Shown piece by piece: positions 10,757 through 46,424 of a stretch of DNA of 64,000 nt (within the stretch, counting starts at the first letter, position 1; every line of letters starts with the position of its first letter). Under the pieces are notes generated by a model. It made no database searches. It was not told where the DNA came from and saw only the letters and a list, made by a program, of their open reading frames with translations. The DNA lies in NCBI GenBank assembly GCA_043756865.1, contig JAYUQG010000024.1, positions 91,259 through 155,258 on the forward strand. Reading direction: 5' to 3'. The position numbers and the translations under genes were made by a program. This DNA comes from a bacterium (GTDB lineage Bacteria; Patescibacteriota; Minisyncoccia; Phycocordibacterales; UBA6899).

Positions 10757-11092
10757 GCATACAGAATAGCATAGCAAGAAAGCAGGCTTAGCCTAAGGGA
10801 ACTCTCGGCTACCGCCGCGGGTGATATTCAATCTCGACGACTTGATAATGGATATCCTTTCTTCAGCAGACGGGACTCTAGCATAAGAGGCGCAACACCC
10901 ATTTCCAATTTTCAGAACGAGACTCTGTCGCGAATATTTTGCTTGCCGCCGAGCGCAAAATTTCTCGACCCCAGCTCGTGGTTTCGCCTGCTGACGAAAC
11001 ATCGCTCCGCTTTTCGAGTCCCTCGTTGAGTGCGGCAGCGCACTCAACACCGCCGTGCAAAAATACCACCTTACGGTGGCTTTTTGTATTTG

Positions 11093-11166
11093 CGCGGCGG
11101 ACGGGACTCGAACCCGCAACCTCCCACGTGACAGGCGGGTGCTCTAACCAGTTGAGCTACCACCGC
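11093..11166 (-). tRNA. tRNA-Asp (anticodon GTC)
   Basis: The reverse complement folds as a cloverleaf. Acceptor stem GCGGTGG/CCGCCGC, anticodon loop CTGTCAC, T-loop GGTTCGAGTCC. CCA is not encoded. Confidence 0.85.
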
Positions 11167-11195
11167 AAATATTATTTTCTGGCCACCTTGACCAG

Positions 11196-11272
11196 TGGTG
11201 TCGACGGGAGGGAACGATCCTCCGACCTCGGGCTTATGAGTCCCGCGCTCTAACCAACTGAGCTACGTCGAC
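11196..11272 (-). tRNA. tRNA-Met-like (anticodon CAT; could be elongator Met, Ile2 or initiator)
   Basis: The reverse complement reads GTCGACGTAGCTCAGTTGGTTAGAGCGCGGGACTCATAAGCCCG..CGTCGACACCA. Perfect 7-bp acceptor stem. CCA is encoded. The T-loop is atypical. Confidence 0.75.
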
Positions 11273-11400
11273 ATATAAACATGCGTGCTCCAGTCACACC
11301 AATGAGCACAGTGGATTTATAGCATATTCTGTCTCAAAATCAAACTTGGATGTCATTTGCATGCGGTTAGGAATTAATCACCAGTCCTAAGTTCACAGAC

Positions 11401-11424
11401 AGGACTCGGTCACGAGTTACTAAG
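11401..11424. repeat. 24-nt repeat related to the repeats next to tRNA-Gln (36153-36186 and 37301-37331, reverse complement)
   Basis: aggactcggtcacgagttactaag matches the reverse complement of cttagtgactcgtgaccgagtcc at 36153-36175 at 22 of 24 positions. Confidence 0.5.
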
Positions 11425-11550
11425 TCTTTTGGTGCGAAGGCCACCAAAAGCCCAAGTACTCCCGACCCCGACTCGCCCGTCTCACAAGGCTTCGACATGG
11501 CTCCGTCTTTCGATTCCTGATGAAAGTGCCATTGGGCGCTTTTTTGTAAT

Positions 11551-11623
11551 TGTTGCGGGGACAGGAATCGAACCTGTGCCTGAAGGTTATGAGCCTTCCG
11601 AGCTACCGCTGCTCCACCCCGCT
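11551..11623 (-). tRNA. tRNA-Met-like (anticodon CAT) with a mismatched 1-72 pair (possible initiator)
   Basis: The reverse complement reads AGCGGGGTGGAGCAGCGGTAGCTCGGAAGGCTCATAACCTTCAGGCACAGGTTCGATTCCTGTCCCCGCAA. Classic TTCGATT T-loop. Positions 1 and 72 form an A-A mismatch. Confidence 0.75.
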
Positions 11624-30150: not shown

Positions 30151-32034
30151 ATGACACAAGACACCGCACTTACAATTATGAAAACCGGGGCAAATATTTT
30201 CCTCACTGGTGAGCCGGGGTCTGGAAAAACACATACCGTGAACGCATATGTGCGGTACCTGAAGGAGCATGGTATTCAACCTTCCATCACTGCGTCGACG
30301 GGGATTGCCGCAACACATGTCGGAGGTATGACGATTCACTCATGGAGCGGTATTGGGATACGTCGCGCACTCTCCGAATATGACCTTGATGCAATGGCCT
30401 CGAACGAGGGGCTGGTCCGCCGACTCGCGAAAGCCAAAGTGCTTATCATCGACGAAATCTCGATGCTTGATGGCACGGTGCTCGACATGGTCGACCAAGT
30501 CTCGCGCACGATAAGGATGAAACAAGAACCCTTTGGCGGGCTACAGGTGATTTTGGTGGGTGACTTCTTTCAGCTCCCGCCGATTGCAAAGCAAGGCGAA
30601 CGTGCGCAGTTTGCGTTTGATTCAAAGGCGTGGAAACTCGCCAATCCAATTATTTGCTATCTTTCTGAACAGCATCGCCAAGAAGACACGGCGTTTCTCT
30701 CGACCTTGGGTGCGATACGTCGCGGGGAATTGGAGGACAGTGTCTTTGAGTATATTGGTGAGCGTAACGTGGCACCGGGTGAACACCCACTCGATATTCC
30801 CCAACTGTACACACACAATATCGACGTCGACAAAAAGAACACCATAGAACTAGAAAAGCTCACCAGCGCACCTGTGGTCTTTCTGATGGAAACAAAGGGG
30901 AGTACGGGGCGGGTAGAACAGTTGGTAAAAGGATGCCTCTCGCCAGAGGAATTGGTCTTGAAGGAAGGTGCGTCTGTCATGTTTACCAAGAACAGCTTTG
31001 ATTCAGGTTATGTAAATGGCACACTCGGTACGGTCATCGGGTTTGATGCTGACAACGGATTTCCTATCGTGGAAACACGTGATGGCGATGAGATAACGGC
31101 GTTTCCGTCGGAGTGGGCAGTGGACGATAGTGGCAAGGTCCTCGCGACCATCACGCAAGTGCCACTACGACTCGCATGGGCTATCACGGTGCACAAAAGC
31201 CAAGGACTCTCGCTGGACGCGGCGGTCATGGACCTCTCACGTGCGTTTGAGTACGGTCAGGGGTATGTCGCACTCTCACGTGTTCGTGAATTCGCTGGTC
31301 TGCATATTCTTGGTATCAACCAGCGCGCGTTTGAGGTACATCCACTCGTCCTTGAACGCGATCAAGCATTCCGCGAACGCTCCGACGATGCAGAGCGTGG
31401 TTTTGAAGACATGCCACCGTCTGATCTCCTGGCACTCCACAATAATTTTATTACTGCTATGGGGGGAACGATTCATGCCGTCGCGCTTGATGAAGCGACA
31501 AAAGCCCCGAAGATTTCTACATATGAACAAACACTCGCACTGGTCGCAGACGGAAAAACTCTTGCAGAGATTATCGCACTTCGCGGGATGACCGAGGGTA
31601 CAATTGTGAAACATCTCGAAGAGCTCGCGCTTTCGGGCAATCTTCCGCCCCTCGAGATGGCACAATTCACAGGACTCGAGCAGCGTGGGCTCGACGATAT
31701 ACGGGAAGCCATCCTCGGCGTAGAAGGAGGTTACTTAAAGCCTATTTATGAAGCGCTCGATGAAGCCTATTCTTATGAAATGATTCGACTTGTGCGCTTA
31801 GCCACAGGCGCTCTGGCAAAGCGTAAAGAAGAGAGCACAGAGCAAAAAGTCGCTCGTAAAGAACCAGCCACTGCGAAGCCAGACAATCTTGGTGCCAAAT
31901 GGTCAACGGAAGAGGAGTCACGTCTGAGAGAAATGTTTCAATCGGGAATGAAGACTGCGCACATCGCCCGCGAGCTCAAGCGTCAATCGGGAGGTATCCG
32001 TGCGCGACTCAAGAAGCTCGGGTTGCTTGAATAG
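30151..32034 (+). CDS. PIF1/RecD-family ATP-dependent helicase with a C-terminal HTH domain
   Basis: Walker A GEPGSGKTH, AAA_30-like core (LIIDEISMLDG), UvrD_C-like region and C-terminal HTH_40-like segment. Confidence 0.75.
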   Translation: MTQDTALTIMKTGANIFLTGEPGSGKTHTVNAYVRYLKEHGIQPSITASTGIAATHVGGMTIHSWSGIGIRRALSEYDLDAMASNEGLVRRLAKAKVLIIDEISMLDGTVLDMVDQVSRTIRMKQEPFGGLQVILVGDFFQLPPIAKQGERAQFAFDSKAWKLANPIICYLSEQHRQEDTAFLSTLGAIRRGELEDSVFEYIGERNVAPGEHPLDIPQLYTHNIDVDKKNTIELEKLTSAPVVFLMETKGSTGRVEQLVKGCLSPEELVLKEGASVMFTKNSFDSGYVNGTLGTVIGFDADNGFPIVETRDGDEITAFPSEWAVDDSGKVLATITQVPLRLAWAITVHKSQGLSLDAAVMDLSRAFEYGQGYVALSRVREFAGLHILGINQRAFEVHPLVLERDQAFRERSDDAERGFEDMPPSDLLALHNNFITAMGGTIHAVALDEATKAPKISTYEQTLALVADGKTLAEIIALRGMTEGTIVKHLEELALSGNLPPLEMAQFTGLEQRGLDDIREAILGVEGGYLKPIYEALDEAYSYEMIRLVRLATGALAKRKEESTEQKVARKEPATAKPDNLGAKWSTEEESRLREMFQSGMKTAHIARELKRQSGGIRARLKKLGLLE

Positions 32035-34758: not shown

Positions 34759-35055
34759 ATGGGCAAAATGGATACATGGCGTATGACCGAAACAGGCACG
34801 GTCGGAGAATGGATACAGGCACCCAATGGTGAATTTGTGGGGACTATTGTCTCCGACTGTGGCGATGTGTACATCGCAGGAAGCAAGGACTGCCCTGATC
34901 CCTACGATGGCGCGCTCATTACCAAAGGCACGCGCGTGCGCTTCGTCCCCGAGCAAAAGGGGAACAAGGTGAAAGACATGGACACGGGTGTTCCGTACTC
35001 TTGGGGCGTCGCTCGAGAAATCGCGATTGTTCCTAAAACACTCAAGCACCGTTAG
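34759..35055 (+). CDS. Small hypothetical protein
   Basis: The internal ATG with an upstream AAGG gives 98 aa (MGKMDTWRMTETGTVGEWIQ..). The longer ORF from 34579 has an implausible Cys-rich N-terminus. Confidence 0.4.
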   Translation: MGKMDTWRMTETGTVGEWIQAPNGEFVGTIVSDCGDVYIAGSKDCPDPYDGALITKGTRVRFVPEQKGNKVKDMDTGVPYSWGVAREIAIVPKTLKHR

Positions 35056-35396
35056 CGGTGCTTTTTCTTTGCACCGCTAATTTCCGCGGACTCACGCACC
35101 CAGGCGTCGATTTGCTCGCGGTCAGTCATGATTTCTTCGGGGACTTCCCAGTAGCTCATGGCTACCTTCTTTTGGTCTTTGCTTGAATATGCAAACGGGG
35201 CGCTGCCTAGCGTTTCATAGTGAGCACGGTTTGTCTCGTTCACCTTGAAATAAAGCGTGCTTTCGGCAATGATTCCAAAAATTATCCCGTCTAAGTACAG
35301 CCCATAGCCGCCAAACATGGATTTGGAGGTAATGCCACGAATGCGCCCTAAGACATCATGCACCACATAGTCGTGGAACTCACTCGATTTTTTCAT
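35052..35396 (-). CDS. TfoX N-terminal domain protein (TfoX/Sxy competence-regulator family)
   Basis: VLGRIRGITSKSMFGGYGLYLDGIIFGIIAESTLYFKVNE..APFAY..MSYWEVPEEI matches the TfoX_N pattern. Confidence 0.7.
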   Translation of the reverse strand: MKKSSEFHDYVVHDVLGRIRGITSKSMFGGYGLYLDGIIFGIIAESTLYFKVNETNRAHYETLGSAPFAYSSKDQKKVAMSYWEVPEEIMTDREQIDAWVRESAEISGAKKKHR

Positions 35397-35848: not shown

Positions 35849-35918
35849 GGGGGTAATACCTTGAAAAATAGACGCATTTGGCTATACTGCGTAGGTTAGT
35901 TGGATTGATATAACATAT

Positions 35919-35989
35919 TGCGGGTTCGTCTAATGGTAGGACGTTACCCTCTGGAGGTAAATATTGGGGTTCGAGTCCCTGACCCGCAG
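35919..35989 (+). tRNA. tRNA-Gln (anticodon CTG)
   Basis: TGCGGGTTCGTCTAATGGTAGGACGTTACCCTCTGGAGGTAAATATTGGGGTTCGAGTCCCTGACCCGCAG. U1-A72 pair and anticodon loop CTCTGGA. Confidence 0.85.
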
Positions 35990-36057
35990 TTACCACACAA
36001 AAACACTCTGCCAAGAGTGTTTTTGTTTTGTGGTAACTCGCGGGTCAGGGACTCGAA
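35971..36057. repeat. 87-nt palindrome: tRNA-Gln 3' end, a 20-bp hairpin, and an inverted copy of the tRNA 3' end
   Basis: tcgagtccctgacccgcag..ttaccacacaaaaacactctgccaagagtgtttttgttttgtggtaa..ctcgcgggtcagggactcgaa. Confidence 0.7.
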
Positions 36058-36152
36058 ATGCGTAAGGTGGTATACAAGACGAGCGAAGCGAGTGCTTGTC
36101 ACCGAGCCGGGGTCGAGAGCACTTTGTAGTTCGGTGGCCTTGCGCCGAAATA

Positions 36153-36186
36153 CTTAGTGACTCGTGACCGAGTCCCTGACCCGCAG
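36153..36186 (+). repeat. att-like direct repeat of the tRNA-Gln 3' end (18 of 19 nt identical)
   Basis: cttagtgactcgtgaccgagtccctgacccgcag, compared with the tRNA 3' end tcgagtccctgacccgcag. Confidence 0.6.
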
Positions 36187-36221
36187 CAATGTCGCAACGT
36201 CACCCTTTTTGGGTGATTTTG

Positions 36222-36391
36222 CTATGGGTGAAAATTGTTTGTGAGGGTGATGTTTTTCTCCCCCCGCTCAATTATGCCAATATATGTGCGGTGCACCTCG
36301 GCGCGCTCTGTGAGTTTTTCTTGGGAAAGCTCGCGTTTCAAGCGTTCCTCGCGGACTCGTTTGCCGAATTTGGTTAGCAACTGTTTATTCA
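36222..36391 (-). CDS. XRE-family (Cro/CI-type) HTH transcriptional regulator, 56 aa
   Basis: Below the 60-aa cutoff of the ORF track. The minus-strand translation reads MNKQLLTKFGKRVREERLKRELSQEKLTERAEVHRTYIGIIERGEKNITLTNNFHP, a canonical HTH_XRE. Divergent from the DUF2726 gene, with a palindrome gtaggaagttgcctac between them. Confidence 0.7.
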
Positions 36392-36452
36392 TATCTACAT
36401 GTACAGTGTAGGAAGTTGCCTACCATGGTTCTACATACTAAAGTTAGCAAAT

Positions 36453-37043
36453 ATGGACAATAATGCGGTGATATTTATACTAGTTGTTTTTGTTGTTTTT
36501 ATTGTGATGAAGATGTTTTTTCAAAAAAAGACACACACAAACACTCATTCAAAAAGCGGACTAATCCTTTCAATCATCTCGCTTTTGTTACCATTCGCGA
36601 AGGAGTTTTTAGAAAAGAGACAGGAGGAAAAGAAGTATATTACAGAAGACGCTCGATATAGTAAAAAACAATATTTCATGACGACCGCTGAGCATCATGT
36701 TTTCGACCAGTTGTTAAAAATAGCAGGGGAGAAATATCACGTCTTTCCGCAGGTGCACTACAGTAAAATTATGTACGCCGAGGGACAGCAGAATTTCCAT
36801 AATCCGTGGTTCAACAAGATAGACCGAAAGTCCGCAGACTTTGTACTTTTTGACAAGCACGACATTTCTCCTGTTTTGGTGATTGAGCATGACGATAAGA
36901 CTCATAATCGTAAAGACCGAATTGAAAGGGACGATTTTATTGACCACACACTTGAAAAAAGTGGAATTTCAATTGTGCATGTTCGACCATTCGCGACCGA
37001 AGAGGAACTGAAGAAACTACTCCAAGTAAAAATCAGTATATAA
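36453..37043 (+). CDS. DUF2726-like protein (PD-(D/E)xK nuclease-like fold) with an N-terminal TM segment
   Basis: Core FDQLLKIAGEKYHVFPQVHYSKIMY..ADFVLFDKHDISPVLVIEHDDKTHNRKDRIERDDFIDHTLEKSGISIVHV matches the DUF2726 pattern (..DF.. ..IELDD.SH....R..RD.F.D..L...GI.L.RI). Confidence 0.55.
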   Translation: MDNNAVIFILVVFVVFIVMKMFFQKKTHTNTHSKSGLILSIISLLLPFAKEFLEKRQEEKKYITEDARYSKKQYFMTTAEHHVFDQLLKIAGEKYHVFPQVHYSKIMYAEGQQNFHNPWFNKIDRKSADFVLFDKHDISPVLVIEHDDKTHNRKDRIERDDFIDHTLEKSGISIVHVRPFATEEELKKLLQVKISI

Positions 37044-37300
37044 GCTTGGATTGGCTTAAAATTGTTCCAACGTCGTCCCACACTCCCAGCAAATGGAAGC
37101 ACCCCTTGGGGGTGTTTTCATTTGCGGGAAAAAGTGCTCTGCAGCACTTTTGGCAGGGACTCGAAGCCGTTCTCCCCTATTTGTGAAGGATTCTTATCCT
37201 GAGTAAATGGAAAACGGGTACTGCCCCTGTAAGGGGAGAGTCTCTGACTCGGAAGACTGAGGCGAAACACTTGGCACATAAGCACTCCTGTGCGAATATG

Positions 37301-37331
37301 TTTAGTAACTAATGACCAGTCCCTGACCCGC
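37301..37331 (+). repeat. att-like partial repeat (agtccctgacccgc) with a flanking ttagtaact motif
   Basis: tttagtaactaatgaccagtccctgacccgc. 14 nt are identical to the tRNA-Gln 3' region. Confidence 0.5.
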
Positions 37332-37364
37332 TACTAAATTGAGTGAGGTTCGGTTCGCGAGAGT

Positions 37365-37790
37365 ATGATTATGACGCCAGAAAATTTAATAAACATAATA
37401 AGTATCGGAGGGGCACTACTAGGTGTTGTTGTTGGAGCACTCCTTAATCACTTTCTAGAAAAAGATAGAAATAAAGACTCTTTAATCTTAAATAAGAAAA
37501 TTGATATTTACTCCTCCCTGTTAGTTAAATTAAATACAGTATTTCAAGACAGTGAGAAAAATATTCTTAATGACCCACTCTTTGAAACAACAATCAGAAC
37601 AACCCTTGCACAATCATTGTCAGAAGCTCGCCTAATAGCTGATGCAAAATTAGAACAGAAACTCAGGGACTACTATGATGAAGCAGTGCTTTTTTGGGAG
37701 AATAAAAAGTACGACAACACCATGCCTAATTTAGTTATTGAGATTGAGCAGTTGATGCGAATTGAGCTAGGAAAAGAACGTCTGCATTAA
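37365..37790 (+). CDS. Hypothetical small membrane protein (one N-terminal TM plus helical region)
   Basis: 141 aa. A TM helix at 12-30 is followed by a charged helical segment. Confidence 0.45.
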   Translation: MIMTPENLINIISIGGALLGVVVGALLNHFLEKDRNKDSLILNKKIDIYSSLLVKLNTVFQDSEKNILNDPLFETTIRTTLAQSLSEARLIADAKLEQKLRDYYDEAVLFWENKKYDNTMPNLVIEIEQLMRIELGKERLH

Positions 37791-37915
37791 TCATTTTGCT
37801 GAGCGCCGAAATGACTTCTTTCAAATCGCCTTATATATCATTATTGGCTTAATGGGGGAAAGTAGGACGCAGGGGGCTGCGGTAAAACCACGAAGTGAAA
37901 AGAAGTATCGATCCA

Positions 37916-38614
37916 ATGAAAAACGAAAAAATTAACTCAAAAATCATCGCTCTGTGGAACAAGTATTTTCAGAATGACACTGAGGTGTACGCACCGATGT
38001 TCTACGATGACTTCAAGCGGGGCGGGTTATTGTTTGTCGGCATGAACCCGTCATTTAGCGAGCGAGGATTCAAGACGATCTTGAAAGGCACAAAGTATGA
38101 GAAGATTGACCCCACTTCGTTTTTCAGGTGGAGTAATATTTCCTCAAACCCTGATCTTATCAGCGACTGTATTGCGGTCGAGACCCATGCGTACGAGAAT
38201 TACAAACCCTTCTTTGCTCGTCCTGTTGCGATCGCAAAAGAAGTCGGGCTTGATTGGCAACACATTGATCTATTTCTTTATAAAGAAACATCGCAGGCAG
38301 ATTTCAAGAAACGCATTAAGGATGGTGACTTGCTGAATCAATTTGCACTCGAGCAAATCGCGCTCTTTGAGGAGGTGCTCCTTGCGATTGAGCCGAAGTG
38401 CATCATCGTTGCGAACGCATTCGGCTCCGAGCTTCTCCGTGAACACATCAAGAATGACCTCTTGTGGGATAAAGAGCGGGGATTTCACTGGTTCACCAAA
38501 GGAGGACGAAAGATTCCCATGCTCTTTTCCTCCATGCTTAGTGGGCAAAGAGCACTTGATCGGTGGTCGTATGAACGCTTGAAATGGCACGTTGGGCAGG
38601 CGGTAAAATCATGA
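37916..38614 (+). CDS. Hypothetical protein, possibly a divergent uracil-DNA glycosylase superfamily member
   Basis: LLFVGMNPSFSE resembles UDG motif A (GMNPG in SMUG, GINPG in MUG). C-terminal PMLFSSMLSGQRA resembles motif B (HPSP/MPSSSAR). By-eye similarity only. Confidence 0.3.
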   Translation: MKNEKINSKIIALWNKYFQNDTEVYAPMFYDDFKRGGLLFVGMNPSFSERGFKTILKGTKYEKIDPTSFFRWSNISSNPDLISDCIAVETHAYENYKPFFARPVAIAKEVGLDWQHIDLFLYKETSQADFKKRIKDGDLLNQFALEQIALFEEVLLAIEPKCIIVANAFGSELLREHIKNDLLWDKERGFHWFTKGGRKIPMLFSSMLSGQRALDRWSYERLKWHVGQAVKS

Positions 38615-39321
38615 AAATTATGACAGGAATATTTTTTTCACATCCACATACACTTTCAGATCAAGTAGGTAAAATCTTGGAAAGAGTTGGTCCTCAGAAA
38701 TTCTTTTCAAGTTCTGACAAAGAAGTGAAGAAAGCACAAGAAGGATTCGCGGCATATTTCTTCACTCTTACTTTAAAGAAATACACAGGAAGAGACTGGT
38801 GGTTAGCTCAATACGATCAAGCGGCTCGGTCTTATCCAGATTTTAATTTTATATCATTCGCCGAAAATCCTGGCGATATAAAGATGGAACCAGTAGAACT
38901 AACTGGTATTTATCCTCATTTCAAAACTTTTGATGAGGCCTTAAGAGTTGTTGAAAATAAAAAGAAGAAATATGGATCTGAGCCAGTGAATTTTAGTCTG
39001 CTGGTATTTGTTAATCACGAAAAAAGCGAAGAGTGGATTAATCTGCTAAGGGAGAAAGTGAGTAGCGAGCATCCATTCCTAAGTATTTGGACTATACACT
39101 TGAGATTCAAGAAGGGTGGAAAGGAAGTTGGTAAGTCGGTCGCCCAAAGCATACCCCCCTTGCCATGGCTGAGGATTGAAGCAGATACTGATGATTCAGA
39201 AGTGCACAAGCGCCAGCCGCTCCCATCCTATATGGAAGAGCATCATGAAGGAAGGAATACTTACGTCACATTCAAACCCGAGTTTCTTGATAAGATCAGG
39301 TCGTTGCAAAAAAGTGCCTAG
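38611..39321 (+). CDS. Hypothetical protein; its start overlaps the previous gene (ATGA)
   Basis: 236 aa with no motif recognised. 4-nt overlap with the upstream gene suggests an operon. Confidence 0.45.
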   Translation: MKIMTGIFFSHPHTLSDQVGKILERVGPQKFFSSSDKEVKKAQEGFAAYFFTLTLKKYTGRDWWLAQYDQAARSYPDFNFISFAENPGDIKMEPVELTGIYPHFKTFDEALRVVENKKKKYGSEPVNFSLLVFVNHEKSEEWINLLREKVSSEHPFLSIWTIHLRFKKGGKEVGKSVAQSIPPLPWLRIEADTDDSEVHKRQPLPSYMEEHHEGRNTYVTFKPEFLDKIRSLQKSA

Positions 39322-39628
39322 TTTGTTGGTGCTGTAAGAATATCCCCGAATGGCTTCACTGTACGGTATTTGTTGTAAATGAGGCAGAGACAGAGACGGG
39401 TGTTTTGTGTCTTATCTGTAGCATTCACAAAATGACCCCAGTGACCGAGACGCCTAGTTACAAGAGTAGAAGGGGTGGTAAGATATCCGTATAAGGTCTT
39501 GCCCTACATGTTTGAGACCGAGATAGTCAGCTATCAACAATAGGTTCGGCTGACCGAGTGCTATCAGAACTGGAAATTTAAAGATTCACTCAATTCCATC
39601 CCGACATACCGGCTGAGTGCCGTATCTA

Positions 39629-39667
39629 GAAACTCAAAGTCGCTCAATGGGCGACTTTGAGTTTGAG
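39629..39667 (+). other. Strong 13-bp hairpin in a 600-bp noncoding stretch
   Basis: aactcaaagtcgctcaatgggcgactttgagtt. Confidence 0.5.
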
Positions 39668-39806
39668 TTGTAGAATAGGTCTGTAATCTATAGGATATAC
39701 AAATGTCAGTCAAACTCATTCTGAAGAGATAGTCCGCTTCTTGAAAACCACAGAGCCGGAAGCCATTTGTATTAGGGGTGAATAGGGTGTCAGATTTGCA
39801 ACTTTC

Positions 39807-39821
39807 GGTTCGAATCCCTGA
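39807..39821 (+). repeat. tRNA T-arm-like fragment (ggttcgaatccctga); possible degenerate right att boundary
   Basis: 15 of 16 identity to the tRNA-Gln T-arm/acceptor junction ggttcgagtccctga. Confidence 0.4.
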
Positions 39822-39933
39822 AGCATTACCTCCACGGAATTGCACTGTACTTTCACCTTTTTTTATATTGCCTTGCGTTTTGTGCAGATATTGATAGTTT
39901 GAGCAGTATTATTTATCAACGCACGGCTTCTTT

Positions 39934-42681
39934 ATGCGTAAACTCGTCACCGTCTTATTCCTCGCCCTCACGCTTTTAGCTATCTCTCTGCCCACTGCGT
40001 TTGCAGCCTTCCCTGTTTTTCCTCCGACACTCAATAAAAGTCCCGACGCTGGGTATGCGGATGATTCAGTGAGCAGTGGAGTGGTGCCGAACATTGGTAC
40101 AACGAGTGCTACAGTCTTCACCTTTAAGGTGCTGTATGCACAGTCACAGAATCGTGAGCCATGGGACATTAATCTTGTTGTCACTGATGGAACAACCACT
40201 GCAATTCATGCGATGAATCATGATGTGGGTGCGAATGATCCAATATTACGCGATGGGAATTATGCGAATGGGGAACAGTACATCTTCGCTGCAACGCTCA
40301 CTCCAGGCATGTGGCAATACCACTTTGAAAGCGATTTCGGCGCACAACTTCCGGGAGCGGGGGAGTGGGATTTCACAGTGAGTGTCGATACGACTCCTTC
40401 GAAGTGTGGGGTGGATTGTTACTCAAATGTGCTTTTCCTGCCTGGACTTGAGGCGAGCAGATTATTTTGGACAGATCCAAATTGCATTTTCCTCAATTGC
40501 GAAAACCAACTATGGCTTGCCAATAGTGATACAGATGCAAAACAACTCTACCTTAATTCAAACGGCACAAGCATATTGAATGACATTTATACGAGTGTTG
40601 AACGAGGTGCGATCGACGAGGCGGCGATTCCTGTGGCGGGCACAAATATATATAAAACTTTTCTCAATAGTCTCAGTGAATGGAAGAATGAAGAGCATCT
40701 TATTGCCGACTACGCAGTAGCACCGTATGACTGGAGATTGTCAGTTGATGATGTGCTCACGAAGGGAATAAAAAACGGAGACAATATTTATTATGGTGGC
40801 GCGAGCGGGACATATATTCTTGATGAACTTTTACGCATGGCGTCCACGTCGAAAACGCAAAAAGTTACAATTGTTGCGCACTCAAATGGTGGATTAGTTG
40901 CAAAACAGTTAATGCTGAAGCTCCGCGAGCTAGGCAAGGAGGACTTGATTGACAGGCTCATTCTCGTCGCTGTTCCACAGGTTGGAACACCAAAGGCAGT
41001 CGGTGGACTACTTCACGGAACAGATCTTGGTCTCCCGTTCATTCTTGATGAGGAGCACGCTCGAACTCTTGGCGAGAATATGCCGAGTGCCTATGCATTG
41101 ATGCCATCTCAGAAATATTTCGAGACCATCAATCCGAATTCAATTACAAACAAACTCATTTCATTTACCGACTCACCGCTGTATGCGCCAGAGAGATCAC
41201 AGTACGGATTTTTGGTGAGCAACATGACGGAGCTTCGGGGCTATCTACTCGGCAGTGAAGGACGAACAGAGCCTGCCGATTCTGATCTCGATTCACCAAA
41301 TGTGCTGAAGTTCGAACTTCTCGATCAAGCATCATCAACCCATGCGCTACTCGATGAATGGCAACCTGCGAGTACGACCGAAGTGGTGCAAATTGGGGGA
41401 TGGGGAGAGAAAACCATATCCGGAGTCAGCTATTACACGGAACAACAACGTGATTGTGTGACTGTGCAGGGTCAGTTTGGCGCTAGTCACCAAGAGTGCG
41501 GTCCGTATTATGAGGTGAAAAAATACAAACCCAATTTTACGACAGAGGGCGATGGTACGGTGGTTGTTCCGAGTGCGCTTTGGATAGCGACAAGCACTTC
41601 GCAGGTTGAGAGGTATTGGGTGGATTTGAAAAAATACAATGATGAGAACATCGATAAAGACCACGCGAAAATACTGGAAGTGAGCACTCTCCTCGACTTC
41701 ATTAAGACCAAACTCACTAATGTGACGTCCTCACTCCCGAACTACATAGTAAACTCCGCATCGACGCTGAGCGACGCTCCAGACATAAAGTTTGTCTATA
41801 CACTCCACTCGCCGCTTTCGCTCAATCTCTACGACACTTTAGGAAATCATACGGGAATATCTACCACAACAGGTTACGTGGAGCAAAATATCTCAGGGTC
41901 TCGCTACGGCACATTCGGCGAAGTGAAGTATATTATTGCAAATGCCGATGTCGCTCAACATCTTGCGCTTCAGGGGTATGCGACAGGAACGTTCAGTTTG
42001 GATGTTGAAAAAGTACGTGGAGATATAATTCTCGCGAGCACCACCTTTGCTTCGGTGCCCGTATCTCCAAACACCATTGCGACATTCTCGCTTCCTGCAA
42101 ATGGTGACTTCTCATCTTCGACACCATTACGGGTTGACGTTGATGGAAATGGGGCAAATGATATCGTGCTCGTACCAGAGATTGGAGCAACTGTATATCC
42201 AGACTTCACTCCACCCGAAGCGATATTCTCATTTAATGCAATTACTAAAGATGTTGTGATTTTGGGGGAAGATAACGTTGGGACAACCTCAACACTAATC
42301 ACACCAACGTCGACCACCATCACTGACCAGTCGGGAAATACACTCAGCATCCCATTCATCAAGTTCAAAGAGAAGCCAACTAAATTAAAAATTGCATTCG
42401 ATACGTTAATTTATAACGGAGTAGCGACCGCAACACCATGGGTGACTATTGAGTATGAATGGGTGATTAAGAATAACGGCATGCTCCAGTCACTTTCACA
42501 GGATATTCGCATCAAGGGTGCGCGCCGTGTGACTGCAGACTATTCTTTGAGCAAGGGTGAAACCAAGATTATGGACAGAATCAGGGAGGATGGGGAAAAG
42601 AGTGTCACAAAAACTGTAAAAACGGGTGTAACCGTGCTTCCGCTGTCGACAAAAGCAGGAGCACTCGACGTGACGTATTGA
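39934..42681 (+). CDS. Large secreted alpha/beta-hydrolase (lipase/esterase GxSxG) protein with a long beta-rich C-terminal region
   Basis: Signal peptide MRKLVTVLFLALTLLAISLPTAFA. Nucleophile elbow VTIVAHSNGGLVAKQ. 915 aa. C-terminal about 400 aa rich in T/S/G/V repeats. Confidence 0.6.
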   Translation: MRKLVTVLFLALTLLAISLPTAFAAFPVFPPTLNKSPDAGYADDSVSSGVVPNIGTTSATVFTFKVLYAQSQNREPWDINLVVTDGTTTAIHAMNHDVGANDPILRDGNYANGEQYIFAATLTPGMWQYHFESDFGAQLPGAGEWDFTVSVDTTPSKCGVDCYSNVLFLPGLEASRLFWTDPNCIFLNCENQLWLANSDTDAKQLYLNSNGTSILNDIYTSVERGAIDEAAIPVAGTNIYKTFLNSLSEWKNEEHLIADYAVAPYDWRLSVDDVLTKGIKNGDNIYYGGASGTYILDELLRMASTSKTQKVTIVAHSNGGLVAKQLMLKLRELGKEDLIDRLILVAVPQVGTPKAVGGLLHGTDLGLPFILDEEHARTLGENMPSAYALMPSQKYFETINPNSITNKLISFTDSPLYAPERSQYGFLVSNMTELRGYLLGSEGRTEPADSDLDSPNVLKFELLDQASSTHALLDEWQPASTTEVVQIGGWGEKTISGVSYYTEQQRDCVTVQGQFGASHQECGPYYEVKKYKPNFTTEGDGTVVVPSALWIATSTSQVERYWVDLKKYNDENIDKDHAKILEVSTLLDFIKTKLTNVTSSLPNYIVNSASTLSDAPDIKFVYTLHSPLSLNLYDTLGNHTGISTTTGYVEQNISGSRYGTFGEVKYIIANADVAQHLALQGYATGTFSLDVEKVRGDIILASTTFASVPVSPNTIATFSLPANGDFSSSTPLRVDVDGNGANDIVLVPEIGATVYPDFTPPEAIFSFNAITKDVVILGEDNVGTTSTLITPTSTTITDQSGNTLSIPFIKFKEKPTKLKIAFDTLIYNGVATATPWVTIEYEWVIKNNGMLQSLSQDIRIKGARRVTADYSLSKGETKIMDRIREDGEKSVTKTVKTGVTVLPLSTKAGALDVTY

Positions 42682-43423: not shown

Positions 43424-44034
43424 ATGTCCCAACCCCCCTATCTTGCACCAACAGAAAATGGGTGTAAGTTTACTCATGCGATAAAAAAGAAATTCTCGCT
43501 TGCCTCTGGAGCACTCATGATTCTCGGTGGGTTATTCACTGCAGAGGGTTGCCATAGCGGCGGGTGGTTCGCCGTTTGACCGACTTGCGGCTGCACTCGG
43601 AGAGCTGCGGAGAGACCTCTCCAGCCTCGAAGTGTGCATTAACAACTTGGTACTTGTACCCGGTCCGCAGGGACCTCGAGGTATTCAGGGAGAGGTTGGA
43701 CCGCAGGGTTTACAGGGTGCTCCTGGTACACAGGGAGCGGTCGGTCGACTGATTACTTACCGTGTGACCTTACCATTCGCCGACATCGCGCTTAATTCTT
43801 CGGCTGCTGCAATCGCAAGGTGCGAACGCGGTGACCAGATACTCTGGTGGGTACTTCCTTCAGGGCTCGACTACTCAGATAGTGGACACAAGGCCTGACT
43901 ATATGGATTGGAACGGAACAAGTTTCGTCGAAGGATGGAAAGTCGTAGGTAGCAATACGAATCCTCCGGCAGGAATTCCCTCAAGCATCGGACTCATTGC
44001 CGCATACGCGCTGTGTAATGACGCCACGCCGTAG
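43424..44034 (+). pseudogene. Collagen-like (Gly-X-Y) repeat protein gene split across three reading frames (frameshifted pseudogene or sequencing errors)
   Basis: Frame a, 43424-43576, has signal-peptide-like MSQ..KKKFSLASGALMILGGLFTAEGC. Frame b, 43527-43898, carries GPQGPRGIQGEVGPQGLQGAPGTQGAVG. Frame c, 43831-44034, is a C-terminal domain. The three frames run consecutively and overlap. Confidence 0.5.
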
Positions 44035-44178
44035 TCTTGCTCGTTTATCAAAAAAACCGCTACTTGGCGTTGCCGCTCGAAGACTCACTTTTTTTGCGCG
44101 CTTTGCGCGGTAGATACAAAAAGCCATCACGTGGTTTTTTGGTAACACGGTCTCTATGTATTTTGCTAGAATACATTA

Positions 44179-44529
44179 ATGGAAAAACACCGTATCTACA
44201 CAATGAGCTTTGCTAGTGTTTATCCATTGTATGTCGCCAAGGCAGAGAAAAAGGGGCGTACGAAAAAAGAGGTGGATGAGGTCATCCGTTGGCTGACGAG
44301 GTACAGCCAGAAAGAATTGGGCACGCAACTGAAAAAACAAACAGACTTCGAGACGTTTTTTGGTGAGGCACCCGAAATGAATCCTGCGCGAGCATTAATT
44401 ACCGGTGTTATTTGTGGTGTGCGATTAGAAGATATTGAGGAAGCGCTTATGCGCGAAATCCGTTATCTGGATAAACTTATCGACGAGCTGGCTAAGGGGC
44501 GTACGATGGAGAGGATTTTGCGAAAGTAA
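44179..44529 (+). CDS. DUF2200 family protein
   Basis: [73 protein letters not shown] matches the DUF2200 pattern. Confidence 0.65.
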
Positions 44530-44577
44530 CACATCATCAGATGATGGAGTCACCAAGCTAAATGTTACAATTCCAAT

Positions 44578-44967
44578 ATGACAAAAAATAAAACAAAGTA
44601 TGTCGACGGGTTCGTGCTTATTGTTCCTCAAAAAAATGTAGCAGCTTACAAAAAAATGGCACAGAGTGCAGGGAAAATGTGGATGCGCTGTGGCGCTCTT
44701 GAGTACGTGGAATGTATGGGAGACGACATGTATCCACCATCCATGGGCATGCAGTCACTCACTTTTCCTAAATTGGCAAACGCGAAAAAGGGCGAGACGG
44801 TGTGGTTCTCCTACATTACGTACAAGTCTCGTGCGCATCGTGATCAGGTGAACAAAAAAGTATACGCAGAAATGAATAAAGTTGCTGCAAAGTACAAGAA
44901 CATGAAGATGCCCTTTGACATGAAGAAAATGGCATTCGGAGGCTTTAAGGTGATGGTACACAACTAA
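44578..44967 (+). CDS. DUF1428 family protein
   Basis: KYVDGFVLIVPQKNVAAYKKMAQSAGKMWMRCGALEYVECMGDD..FPKLA..GETVWFSYITYKSRAHRD..FGGFKVMV matches the DUF1428 pattern. Confidence 0.65.
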   Translation: MTKNKTKYVDGFVLIVPQKNVAAYKKMAQSAGKMWMRCGALEYVECMGDDMYPPSMGMQSLTFPKLANAKKGETVWFSYITYKSRAHRDQVNKKVYAEMNKVAAKYKNMKMPFDMKKMAFGGFKVMVHN

Positions 44968-44972
44968 TCTCT

Positions 44973-45380
44973 ATGCCGAAATCAGTCACAAAGTTACACG
45001 CAGACATCGAAGCATACAACAAGGCACAGTCTCGTGACGACAAAGCGATTTGCGTCATGTTGGCAGAAGAGATAATGCACAATCTTCCCGATGCTGAAAA
45101 TAAAATCTGGCACAGGCATCCTGTATGGTTTCTGGATGGAAATCCTGTTGTGGGGTATAGCAAGCTGAAGGATTCCGTCCGTCTCCTGTTTTGGAGCGGG
45201 CAGTCTTTTGATGAAGCGGGTTTAACGAATGAGGGAAGTTTTAAGGCAGCGGACATGCGCTATACGGAACTGTCACAGATAAACAAAAAAGACCTCAAGC
45301 GCTGGCTAAGGAAATCCGAGGATATTCAATGGGACTACAAAAACATTGTCAAAAGAAAGGGTGTGCTGATTAGATTGTAA
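44973..45380 (+). CDS. Hypothetical protein (DUF1801/YdhG-like?)
   Basis: 135 aa reading ..WHRHPVWFLDGNPVVGYSKLKDSVRLLFWSGQSF..QWDYKNIVKRKG. Family assignment is uncertain. Confidence 0.4.
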   Translation: MPKSVTKLHADIEAYNKAQSRDDKAICVMLAEEIMHNLPDAENKIWHRHPVWFLDGNPVVGYSKLKDSVRLLFWSGQSFDEAGLTNEGSFKAADMRYTELSQINKKDLKRWLRKSEDIQWDYKNIVKRKGVLIRL

Positions 45381-45482
45381 GCAGCGTTGTGGGTGCATAA
45401 TAACTTCAATATTTGCGAGGGAAAAATTTTGACAACCAGCCGTACGTATTCAAGACGGGAATTCTTTTGATATAATTAGTGC

Positions 45483-45830
45483 ATGCCTGATTTCGTCGTG
45501 AATACGTTTATTTCACTCGAGTCCAACGAACTGAGTGGAATTACATTGCTTGCAGCATTGGGGATCGTGTTTGTATTTTTTTGTTATTGGGGGATGCGAC
45601 TACTTCTGCCTTTGTTCCAAACAAATAAGCTACATATTTCAAAAAGACAAAAAATGATTTATGCATGGGGAGTCGTGGGTATTCTTTCACTTATTTTTTT
45701 AGGTATGATCAGAGAAAAGTTCCTTCCTTGGGTAGATAGCGATATCTTTATTTTCACATTCTCAGCAATTATTGTGTCGGGTTGTATCTATTTTTTGTTG
45801 AAGAAGGAGGATAAGACTATGCAAAAGTGA
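45483..45830 (+). CDS. Hypothetical membrane protein
   Basis: 115 aa with three TM helices. Confidence 0.4.
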   Translation: MPDFVVNTFISLESNELSGITLLAALGIVFVFFCYWGMRLLLPLFQTNKLHISKRQKMIYAWGVVGILSLIFLGMIREKFLPWVDSDIFIFTFSAIIVSGCIYFLLKKEDKTMQK

Positions 45831-45980
45831 ACTACTGTTTATTCAACCATTCACTCGTTCTCCCTTACGTTTGCTTTAGCATGCACTACGGGACCACGTA
45901 AGATCTGGGGGTGTCACCATGCCCATTCCGCTTAATGATATATTCTGCTACTCTCATTTCATAAATCTAATTTTATACAC

Positions 45981-46424
45981 ATGGCACGCGTCAGCACTTA
46001 TCTCAATTTCACTCGTTCGACGGAAGAAGCATTCAATTTTTACCAGTCAATCTTTGGAGGTACGTTCACGGGCGGAATCGCACGACTCGGTGATGCGCCT
46101 GCACAAGAGGGCATGCCCCCACTTGCTGATGGAGACAAAAATCTCGTTATGCATGTTGCACTCCCGATTCTCGGCGGTCACGTACTCATGGGCACCGATG
46201 CTCCAGAATCACTGGGATTTAAAGTCAGCTTTGGGAACAATATCTATATTAACCTTGAGCCGGACACTCGTACCCAAACAAAGAAATTGTTTGATGCGTT
46301 GTCGCAAGGAGGTAAAATTGAAATGGAGTTACAGGAAATGTTTTGGGGAGACTACTATGGTTCATGCACGGACAAATATGGGGTGCACTGGATGTTTAAT
46401 TGTAGTACTGCCCTTTCCAAATAA
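45981..46424 (+). CDS. VOC-family protein (PhnB / glyoxalase-bleomycin resistance-like)
   Basis: YLNFTRSTEEAFNFYQSIFGG..MHVALPILGGHVLMGTD..MELQEMFWGDYYGSCTDKYGVHWMF is PhnB-like. Confidence 0.7.
   Translation: MARVSTYLNFTRSTEEAFNFYQSIFGGTFTGGIARLGDAPAQEGMPPLADGDKNLVMHVALPILGGHVLMGTDAPESLGFKVSFGNNIYINLEPDTRTQTKKLFDALSQGGKIEMELQEMFWGDYYGSCTDKYGVHWMFNCSTALSK

Follow-up and report, generated by a model that had tools for sequence, protein, structure and literature searches.

A palindrome at the 3' end of a tRNA-Gln gene marks one end of a small structured insertion from a tRNA- and tmRNA-linked family of Patescibacteria

In a bacterium of the Patescibacteriota (GTDB lineage Minisyncoccia; Phycocordibacterales; UBA6899), the last nucleotides of a tRNA-Gln gene are followed, beyond a hairpin, by an inverted copy of themselves, which raises the question of how the end of a tRNA gene came to form one arm of an 87-nucleotide (nt) palindrome. 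We analyzed this locus in a window of 64,000 nt, the whole stretch under study (NCBI GenBank assembly GCA_043756865.1, contig JAYUQG010000024.1, positions 91,259 to 155,258 of the forward strand; positions below are those of the window). In the palindrome, the 3' end of tRNA-Gln meets the left end of an insertion element that is small, structured and non-coding and that belongs to a family of Patescibacteria linked to tRNA and transfer-messenger RNA (tmRNA) genes.

A preliminary description of the locus had placed the palindrome at 35971-36057, and both its coordinates and its sequences agree with the repeat finder and the window sequence. The last 19 nt of tRNA-Gln (35971-35989) are followed by the hairpin H1, with a left arm (35990-36009), a GCCA loop (36010-36013) and a right arm (36014-36036), and then by the inverted tRNA end (36037-36057). 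H1 had been described as a perfect 20-bp hairpin; its right arm measures 23 nt against 20 nt on the left, leaving a 3-nt T bulge. The inverted copy of the tRNA end is indeed present, with an 18-nt pair of 100% complementarity (35970-35987 / 36040-36057), but the outer arms differ by one nucleotide (AG versus GAG), and the whole is a near-perfect palindrome with two small bulges. Folding, which had been proposed as a check, gave for the region 35918-36070 a long hairpin far stronger than those of shuffled sequences (-84.6 kcal/mol, z = -10.35, with none of 200 shuffles as good). At up to three mismatches, the 18-mer of the tRNA end occurs four times in the window against 0.06 expected; a direct third copy (36169-36186, 18/18) and a degenerate fourth copy (37316-37333) had been overlooked.

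The inner hairpin resembles an intrinsic terminator (match at 35997-36026, then TTTGTGGTAA), and it is the only part of the palindrome with the G+C-rich stem-loop and U tract after a gene that characterize rho-independent terminators; its likeness to a terminator leaves the tRNA-derived outer arms unexplained. The palindrome is not an assembly artefact, because an independent Logan assembly (L001, SRR23617209) is identical to the window over the whole region, and the same arrangement was found in other genomes (L067, L108, L125, L076 and L157). A second assembly of the same organism (L002, a contig of Logan SRR23617208) breaks within tRNA-Gln at the D/anticodon region, which may reflect a repeat-induced break or population heterogeneity at the locus. 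In the tRNA-Gln itself, position 37 is a G (anticodon loop CUCUGGA), and CCA is not encoded.

Comparison with a relative reveals the extent of the inserted DNA. The nearest relative of the window among the fetched loci, L112, is a Candidatus Lloydbacteria metagenome-assembled genome that is syntenic with it (74-76% nucleotide identity in the SbmA and PIF1-like helicase genes). The L112 tRNA-Gln runs directly into the sequence that the window has after 36186 (97% identical over 68 nt), and the 18-nt segment from C56 to the discriminator G73, hereafter S, aligns in L112 to both window copies; the unoccupied-site junction joins tRNA-Gln to CAATGTCGCAAC. Compared with this direct junction, the window carries 197 extra bases with 18-bp direct repeats, laid out as S, H1, the inverted copy S', a conserved three-way-junction body and a second, downstream S. 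S' can pair with the downstream S (inverted repeat I3) as well as with the tRNA. The palindrome had also been proposed as the footprint of a site-specific recombination (inversion) event: its right half does belong to an insertion with direct repeats, but an inversion is not supported.

The inserted body is structured. The 150 nt at 36037-36186 fold as a closing helix and a three-way junction (-81.6 kcal/mol on the plus strand, -66.9 on the minus strand), from which the helices P2 and P3 emerge; the internal loop of P2 reads GGAG/CGA in the family consensus and GUAAGG/CGA in the window tRNA-Gln copy. We aligned 59 units with MAFFT using no structure information and built the covariance model R1 from this alignment, which recovers the tRNA-Gln unit at 36046-36178 (63.4 bits, E = 1.5e-14). 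In the whole 64-kb window R1 has exactly three matches (E = 1e-14 to 1e-18), each just 3' of a tRNA and on the same strand, and elements are present at three of the four tRNA transcription units. The S' of the tRNA-Met unit (CAGGAATCGAA) complements the T arm of tRNA-Met and not that of tRNA-Gln, and the tRNA-Asp unit, whose inverted segment likewise complements its own tRNA instead of tRNA-Gln, is laid out as H1, the acceptor complement, a side hairpin H2 and then GGGACTCGAA, with remnants on to about 10800. These two units lie in a minus-strand cluster (10917-11623) of tRNA-Met, a type-B unit, tRNA-Met, tRNA-Asp and another type-B unit, after which come further degenerate repeats of the tRNA-Asp end and a piece of a fourth type of body (CACCCGCGGCGGTAGCCGAGAGT, shared with L100). 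Because this cluster shows them too, tRNA hot spots with stacked remnants are not confined to tRNA-Gln.

A folded-element family behind tRNA and tmRNA genes is widespread in Patescibacteria. A scan with the tRNA-Gln end, using one genome per GTDB species, yielded at least 119 loci, mostly from this group, and 25 of 121 tRNA-Gln loci in GTDB species representatives carry such units. These share a layout of a hairpin, an inverted T-arm copy (often with the acceptor complement), about 100 nt and a direct copy. At least four body types occur, the window tRNA-Gln unit being of type B; units stand in tandem in L051, L076 and L018, and arrays and cargo are found in the window, L051, L076 and L119. 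For the palindrome next to tRNA-Gln, related genomes give a mixed picture, with L112 lacking any and several others having one with tRNA-derived arms. R1 detects 12 units in 99 tRNA-Gln loci, nearly all from Patescibacteria, and nothing credible in 20 other loci (17 from outside Patescibacteria and 3 from metagenomes). A metagenome survey with a pattern that covers the body only and contains no tRNA-specific bases matched at least 120 loci: 92 of 121 units have a same-strand tRNA upstream, at a median distance of 61 nt and with more than 25 anticodons, and at least five further units follow tmRNA genes. Five type-B units (L166, L180, L208, L225 and L236) stand directly 3' of tmRNA (ssrA), their inverted and direct copies matching the tmRNA 3' end. 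In related genomes, such elements accompany about 14-20% of the sampled tRNA genes. This family of structured, tRNA-linked elements is apparently undescribed so far, as no description was found in the open-access literature; an earlier description elsewhere is possible.

The body has evolved under selection for its fold on the tRNA-sense strand. Double compensatory changes occur in 11 of the 18 predicted body pairs, one of which is CG in 21 sequences, AU in 20, GC in 12 and UA in 5, and a G.U pair at the base of P3 is kept in 58 of the 59 sequences. The motif GTGACC is nearly invariant though absent from the search pattern. Among wobble pairs, 87 are G.T and 4 are A.C (29 versus 4 without the invariant pair), and because G.T prevails to this extent the fold lies on the tRNA-sense strand; in addition, the plus strand folds more stably than the minus strand in all five of five units. 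Rfam 15 returned only tRNA matches at the gathering threshold in the window and in 16 unit-bearing loci, and only sub-threshold noise, such as plant microRNA hairpins, at E up to 10 in 35850-36450.

By comparison with the body, the flanking segments follow the host gene. The spacer between tRNA and body holds H1 (A tract, G+C hairpin and U tract), the acceptor complement (at no more than one mismatch in 39 of 90 units) and often H2, which sits exactly between the acceptor complement and the T-arm complement; most family members have an A tract and/or a U tract at H1. Read as its reverse complement, S' agrees with the cognate tRNA without interruption from T54 over 11 nt (median), of which the search pattern itself fixes five (TTCGA), versus a median of 5 nt in the non-cognate control. 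In 42 of 84 units, the conserved GTGACC leads into a perfect copy of the tRNA from A58 on (14/14); body and direct copy always join as GTGAC|C56, and the direct copy ends at the mature tRNA 3' end. Regardless of body type, an inverted T-arm copy of at least 11/12 lies within 160 nt downstream of 16 of 118 tRNAs in the GTDB loci, compared with 0 of 115 in the upstream control. The window tRNA-Gln unit and the tRNA-Gly unit of L147 share a near-identical P2, which hints that one body may be retargeted across tRNAs.

The history of the two copies can be read in part from their divergence. S' and the downstream S depart from the tRNA by 72 and 86 one-sided changes and only 5 joint ones; because they drift separately, S:S' pairing is not kept by compensatory evolution, and both look like copies of the host gene that were made or fixed at insertion. 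Encoded CCA is lacking in 34 of 40 surveyed metagenome tRNAs, and in six cases CCA is retained by the downstream S but missing from the current tRNA end, the reverse never being seen. Because CCA is kept there and not at the present tRNA end, the downstream S appears to be the original 3' end, and we infer that in the window the copy at 36169-36186 is the original, displaced tRNA-Gln end. The features of the locus and of the other units are collected in Table 1.

Table 1. Coordinates of the tRNA-Gln locus, its insertion array and the two other type-B units of the window
Feature	Position	Strand	Basis
tRNA-Gln(CUG), CCA not encoded	35919..35989	+	ARAGORN; Rfam tRNA 56.6 bits
Promoter-like site TTGAAA-16-TATACT, 5' of tRNA-Gln	35861..35888	+	Consensus scan only; not taken as evidence of function
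S, C56 to discriminator G73 of tRNA-Gln; repeated unit and left outer arm	35972..35989	+	Direct repeat D1, inverted repeat I1
H1 hairpin: A-tract, 13-bp stem, GCCA loop, U-tract; 3-nt T bulge on 3' arm	35990..36036	+	-29.1 kcal/mol, z = -8.1
S', reverse complement of tRNA-Gln C56-G73 plus one extra base; right outer arm	36037..36055	+	Inverted repeats I1, I3
Type-B body, three-way junction: AAAG, P2, GG, P3 with invariant G.U, ending GTGAC	36056..36168	+	Covariance model R1, covariation, fold
Direct copy of S, 18/18	36169..36186	+	D1; L112 aligns to both copies; family CCA asymmetry
Second terminator-like hairpin and T tract	36199..36227	+	Terminator scan (hairpin 36199-36217); L112 comparison
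Cargo between repeat copies: 56-amino-acid (aa) helix-turn-helix (HTH) protein (-, 36222-36392) and DUF2726 nuclease-like gene (+, 36399-37043)	36222..37043		Pfam, PADLOC, L001 gene calls
Older type-A unit	37072..37258	+	Motif matches, sequence
Type-B right-end remnant (TTAGTAACTAATGACC) and degenerate S copy, 15/18	37296..37333	+	Motif and repeat matches
Type-B unit behind tRNA-Met (11552-11623, -)	11399..11520	-	R1 78.8 bits, E = 1.8e-18
Type-B unit behind tRNA-Asp (11092-11166, -)	10917..11024	-	R1 79.4 bits, E = 1.3e-18

The neighborhoods of the units were searched for an enzyme that could mobilize them. The 1016 open reading frames (ORFs) around 127 units cluster into housekeeping families only, including UPF0102/YraN, PilM, MiaA, the CCA-adding enzyme and ParB; there is no integrase or transposase among the top 14 clusters, three representatives having been checked against Pfam, and no recombinase domain in the window genes flanking the tRNA-Gln array. 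Furthermore, 2.9 million viral contigs gave no match for the 20-mer and none for the body pattern.

Two ideas lead on how these elements move: a folded single strand as a mimic of an attachment (att) site, and a tRNA-like RNA. We favor, at a probability of roughly 60%, a non-autonomous, structured insertion element that targets tRNA genes, likely via a folded single strand. Insertion would join inside the T loop, at T55|C56; the present tRNA 3' end and the terminator-like H1 would be supplied by the element, as in classical integration at tRNA genes, and the downstream S would be the displaced original end. Such an element would be selfish and devoid of its own enzyme, and it would act as a folded single strand: with H1 as its cap and stacking on P3, the S:S' stem would mimic the double-stranded target of the tRNA gene. 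An enzyme of the host or of a helper may then recombine the folded strand at the tRNA gene by a logic like that of CTX phage attP or integron attC, in which case the circle junction would join the body end GTGAC to CGAGTCCCTGACCCGCAG-TTACCAC. Homology to the conserved tRNA gene could also let units spread between genomes by ordinary recombination. What is visible for the cell is that the tRNA is regenerated, its terminator is replaced and additional decoy copies of its end are present.

Several points weigh against the folded-strand insertion. One body serves more than 25 tRNAs, and a classical att-carrying element does not retarget so easily; any mechanism that makes both S and S' match each new host would be hypothetical. 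H2 splits S' exactly at the boundary between acceptor and T stem, which suggests a designed junction of tRNA type more than it does a copy. Conserved G.U pairs, GNRA-type loops and a GA-rich internal loop are found more typically in RNA than in single-stranded DNA. A mobilizing enzyme, a free form and an excision junction were not found. The survey was seeded by the body pattern, which makes conservation at the pattern positions circular, GTGACC and the covarying pairs being independent of it. In addition, the empty site in L112 is not pristine: over the 50 nt that follow its tRNA, identity to the window is 97%, compared with about 75% in the flanking genes, and this stretch may belong to another mobile unit.

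In the second idea, a possible though clearly less probable one, the unit is the gene of a functional tRNA-like non-coding RNA and S' pairs with the downstream S in read-through transcripts. Such an RNA would have an acceptor-like helix (the 7 bp of the neighboring tRNA plus the discriminator), H2 as a side arm and an extended T-like helix carrying the body; it would be excised by RNase P, 3' trimming and CCA-adding enzymes and could act as a mimic or decoy, for the cell or for its own spread. The sense-strand fold with its wobble bias (87 versus 4) and invariant G.U pair accords with an RNA, as do the GNRA-type loops and GA-rich internal loop, the conserved junction nucleotides and GGAG/CGA internal loop, and the abundant compensatory changes. 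The S' split by H2 imitates the 5' two-thirds of a tRNA, the unit stops exactly at the mature tRNA 3' end, where a terminator follows, and the housekeeping neighborhoods hold no mobility genes. However, the closing helix that this RNA would need is not maintained by compensatory change (72 and 86 one-sided, 5 joint), the terminator-like H1 precedes the unit, the unit has no space for a promoter of its own, and no Rfam family matches. Presence and absence also differ between related genomes and tandem remnants decay, which would be unusual for an essential RNA gene.

The remaining explanations are less probable still. The unit could be a decayed remnant, like a cis-mobilizable element (CIME), of integrase-carrying tRNA-Gln islands or prophages, with two att sites and the interior deleted: direct repeats of a tRNA 3' end from the T loop are the classic signature of integration into tRNA genes, cargo genes lie between repeats in the window and L119, and tandem arrays at ssrA are known in Dehalococcoides (PMC3146451). 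We regard this as unlikely, since one and the same 110-nt body follows tmRNA as well as tRNAs of more than 25 kinds and is under selection for a single-strand fold, an inverted core copy is not a feature of att remnants, the neighbor-ORF clustering found no integrase near any of the 127 units, and the 20-mer and body pattern are absent from the 2.9 million viral contigs. Somewhat more doubtful again is pairing in cis, already suggested in the preliminary description, by which S' would bind the T arm and acceptor 3' strand of the tRNA-Gln precursor and control its folding or 3' processing. The minimum-energy structure of 35918-36070 does use the long hairpin (-84.6 kcal/mol) in place of the T arm and acceptor stem, the S' of the window tRNA-Met unit fully complements the upstream T arm and mismatches the downstream S at one position, and across the family complementarity of S' to the upstream tRNA is kept about as well as identity of the downstream S. 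Yet the terminator-like H1 lies between tRNA and S', the tRNA folds first during transcription, and S' has a competing partner downstream (I3). Moreover, most tRNA-Gln genes of the same sequence lack the element, and because of this it is dispensable for tRNA-Gln. Chance, an ordinary bidirectional terminator or the scar of a site-specific inversion, for which the inner hairpin taken alone does resemble an ordinary terminator, is scarcely credible: the 18-nt outer arms match the tRNA exactly, the arrangement recurs across genomes and tRNAs, and no inverted segment is detectable against L112.

The folded-strand element shares features with several known systems and coincides with none of those compared here. 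Among elements that integrate at the T loop, mycobacteriophage Ms6 has its att core in the T loop of tRNA-Ala (PMC1762012), and islands and tandem arrays occur at ssrA in Dehalococcoides (PMC3146451). Like these, the unit has the 3' part of a tRNA or tmRNA gene as its target, a direct repeat from the T loop to the gene end, a regenerated tRNA, arrays and cargo. Unlike them, it has a size of about 150-200 bp without an integrase, one body for more than 25 tRNA species, an inverted core copy and a single-strand fold that covaries. As in tRNA islands, the insert stands between direct repeats of the tRNA 3' segment (18/18 at 35972-35989 and 36169-36186); no integrase stands at one end, either in the window array flanks or in the ORF clusters around the 127 units, and no specificity for one tRNA gene is seen, the window alone having three different tRNAs. 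Sublocation classes of integration in tRNA and tmRNA genes were reportedly defined by Williams in 2002.

CTX phage attP(+), used by XerCD, and integron attC, used by IntI, are folded single-strand recombination sites. As in these, inverted target-like segments around a spacer would let one strand of the unit fold like a duplex, bulges lie on one arm only, selection acts on structure over sequence in a strand-specific manner, a recombinase of its own is not required, and small cassettes form arrays. By contrast, the target of the unit is the tRNA T loop instead of dif or attI, its stem is an exact copy of the target with a large and conserved three-way junction attached, GTTRRRY boxes, IntI and a Xer-type site are absent, and its single-stranded stage is a putative one. 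The palindrome ends in GTTACCA/TGGTAAC in place of the attC boxes (RYYYAAC ... GTTRRRY), and no integrase is nearby; it is an imperfect palindrome with bulges on the 3' arm only and a strand-specific wobble asymmetry, features that would fit a folded RNA as well as a folded DNA strand.

Miniature inverted-repeat transposable elements (MITEs) and CIMEs are non-autonomous derivatives of transposons or integrative elements. The unit resembles them in being small, non-coding and multi-copy, with terminal inverted repeats (S' and S), no enzyme of its own and presence/absence polymorphism; it differs in that its terminal repeats are target copies that change with each host gene and its interior is a conserved covarying fold. 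No parent transposon occurs among the unit-neighbor ORFs, and to our knowledge these units have no parent autonomous element. With tRNA-like RNAs (viral 3' tRNA-like structures, mascRNA, YrlA and tmRNA) the unit would share a helix like that of an acceptor stem, a 3' end of tRNA type and possibly a reliance on tRNA processing, but its helix is a literal copy of a strand of the neighboring tRNA, and it has no T loop and no tRNA-like match in Rfam. Tycheposons of Prochlorococcus, from Hackl et al. in 2023, are said to be kilobase-scale and defined by tyrosine recombinases; tRNA hot spots, arrays of partial tRNA repeats, small cargo modules and, in some, the lack of an own recombinase recall the present units, and we know of no conserved structured non-coding body or inverted tRNA copy described for them.

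Other candidates were considered and rejected. Group I introns in Patescibacteria tRNAs sit at anticodon-loop position 35/36 (PMC13011429); the tRNA-Gln is uninterrupted, the unit is 3' of the gene, and the Rfam searches returned no group I match. The junctions were by eye unlike the hammerhead core (CUGANGA/GAAA), and Rfam, including its hairpin and twister families, gave no self-cleaving ribozyme at E up to 10 in 35850-36450. A bulge-helix-bulge intron of archaeal type within the T loop would need complementary junction sequences, which are not present, and the tRNA needs no splicing to be intact. A primer-binding site like those of retroviruses was dismissed, as no TGG (and so no CCA complement) precedes S' and the new tRNA ends lack CCA. 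Hairpin opening (P nucleotides) or snap-back copying does not fit either, H1 not being repeated after the downstream S and H2 interrupting S', and kissing of the H2 loop (CUGC) with the AGCAG loops of P2/P3 is found in part of the units only. As for empty sites and synteny, L094 was tried for L121, with which it shares 36 nt after the tRNA, but it is itself a mosaic of remnants; the adjacent 151-aa protein has homologues in unrelated neighborhoods without tRNA-Gln.

The 197-bp insertion is the first member of a longer array behind tRNA-Gln. The older type-A unit comprises a degenerate S (37072-37091), H1 (37089-37125), GGG and the hairpin H2 (37126-37152), the T-arm complement CAGGGACTCGAA (37154-37165), a body with GGGTACTG and a GUAA hairpin, and another degenerate S (37237-37255), and is almost identical to the first unit of L076. 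In the cargo, the 56-aa HTH protein resembles a control (C) protein of restriction-modification systems (PADLOC, E = 3e-14); its gene is divergent to the DUF2726 (PD-(D/E)xK-like) gene between two copies of the tRNA-Gln end, like a small defense-type cassette. The equivalent position holds a weak SIR2-like gene in L119 and a methyltransferase in L121. In L115, L116, L119, L121 and L124, the tRNA-Gln end or its copy leads into a conserved leader (CAGYYTRGARATAGKTTCG...CTCCRAGGAG...ATG); in L119 and L121 it lies about 1-60 nt after the direct tRNA-end copy, the genes behind it differ and the genomes are unrelated, and it may be the 5' end of another kind of cassette.

Beyond the array, G+C content is 0.42-0.43 at 36001-40000 and 44001-46000, compared with about 0.48-0.50 elsewhere in the window. 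The ORFs at 37365-39321 have no Pfam or PADLOC match, and a 915-aa LCAT-like alpha/beta hydrolase gene comes next (39934-42681); this low-G+C region 3' of the array is possibly further acquired DNA. On the other side, shortly before the tRNA-Gln locus, is a gene with the competence-regulator domain TfoX_N (35052-35396), and the PIF1-like helicase with a C-terminal HTH_40 domain (30151-32034) has weak PADLOC matches to RecD-like defense candidates.

Taken as a whole, the family may be an unrecognized, Patescibacteria-specific class of mobile elements or of tRNA-mimicking RNAs that recognizes the T-arm/acceptor module common to tRNAs and tmRNA and installs itself without its own recombinase, to finish with the 3' end of its host gene in both an inverted and a direct copy, a proposal that we put forward tentatively, at somewhat less than even odds. 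If it is correct, the units would represent either a new insertion chemistry, target-templated or using a folded single strand that mimics the target, or a new family of tRNA-like RNAs with one member per tRNA gene. Mobile units would give these bacteria a route for gaining DNA at tRNA genes without a linked integrase, one that also brings in small defense-like cargo, and would bear on gene exchange among these episymbionts and on the annotation of tRNA fragments. As RNAs, they would constitute a new, large family of tRNA mimics that shows clear covariation and lends itself to structural and biochemical work. Either way, the constant pairing of a conserved fold with a copy of the neighboring tRNA offers a testable handle on the mechanism, and elements of this kind are frequent despite the tiny genomes of Patescibacteria.

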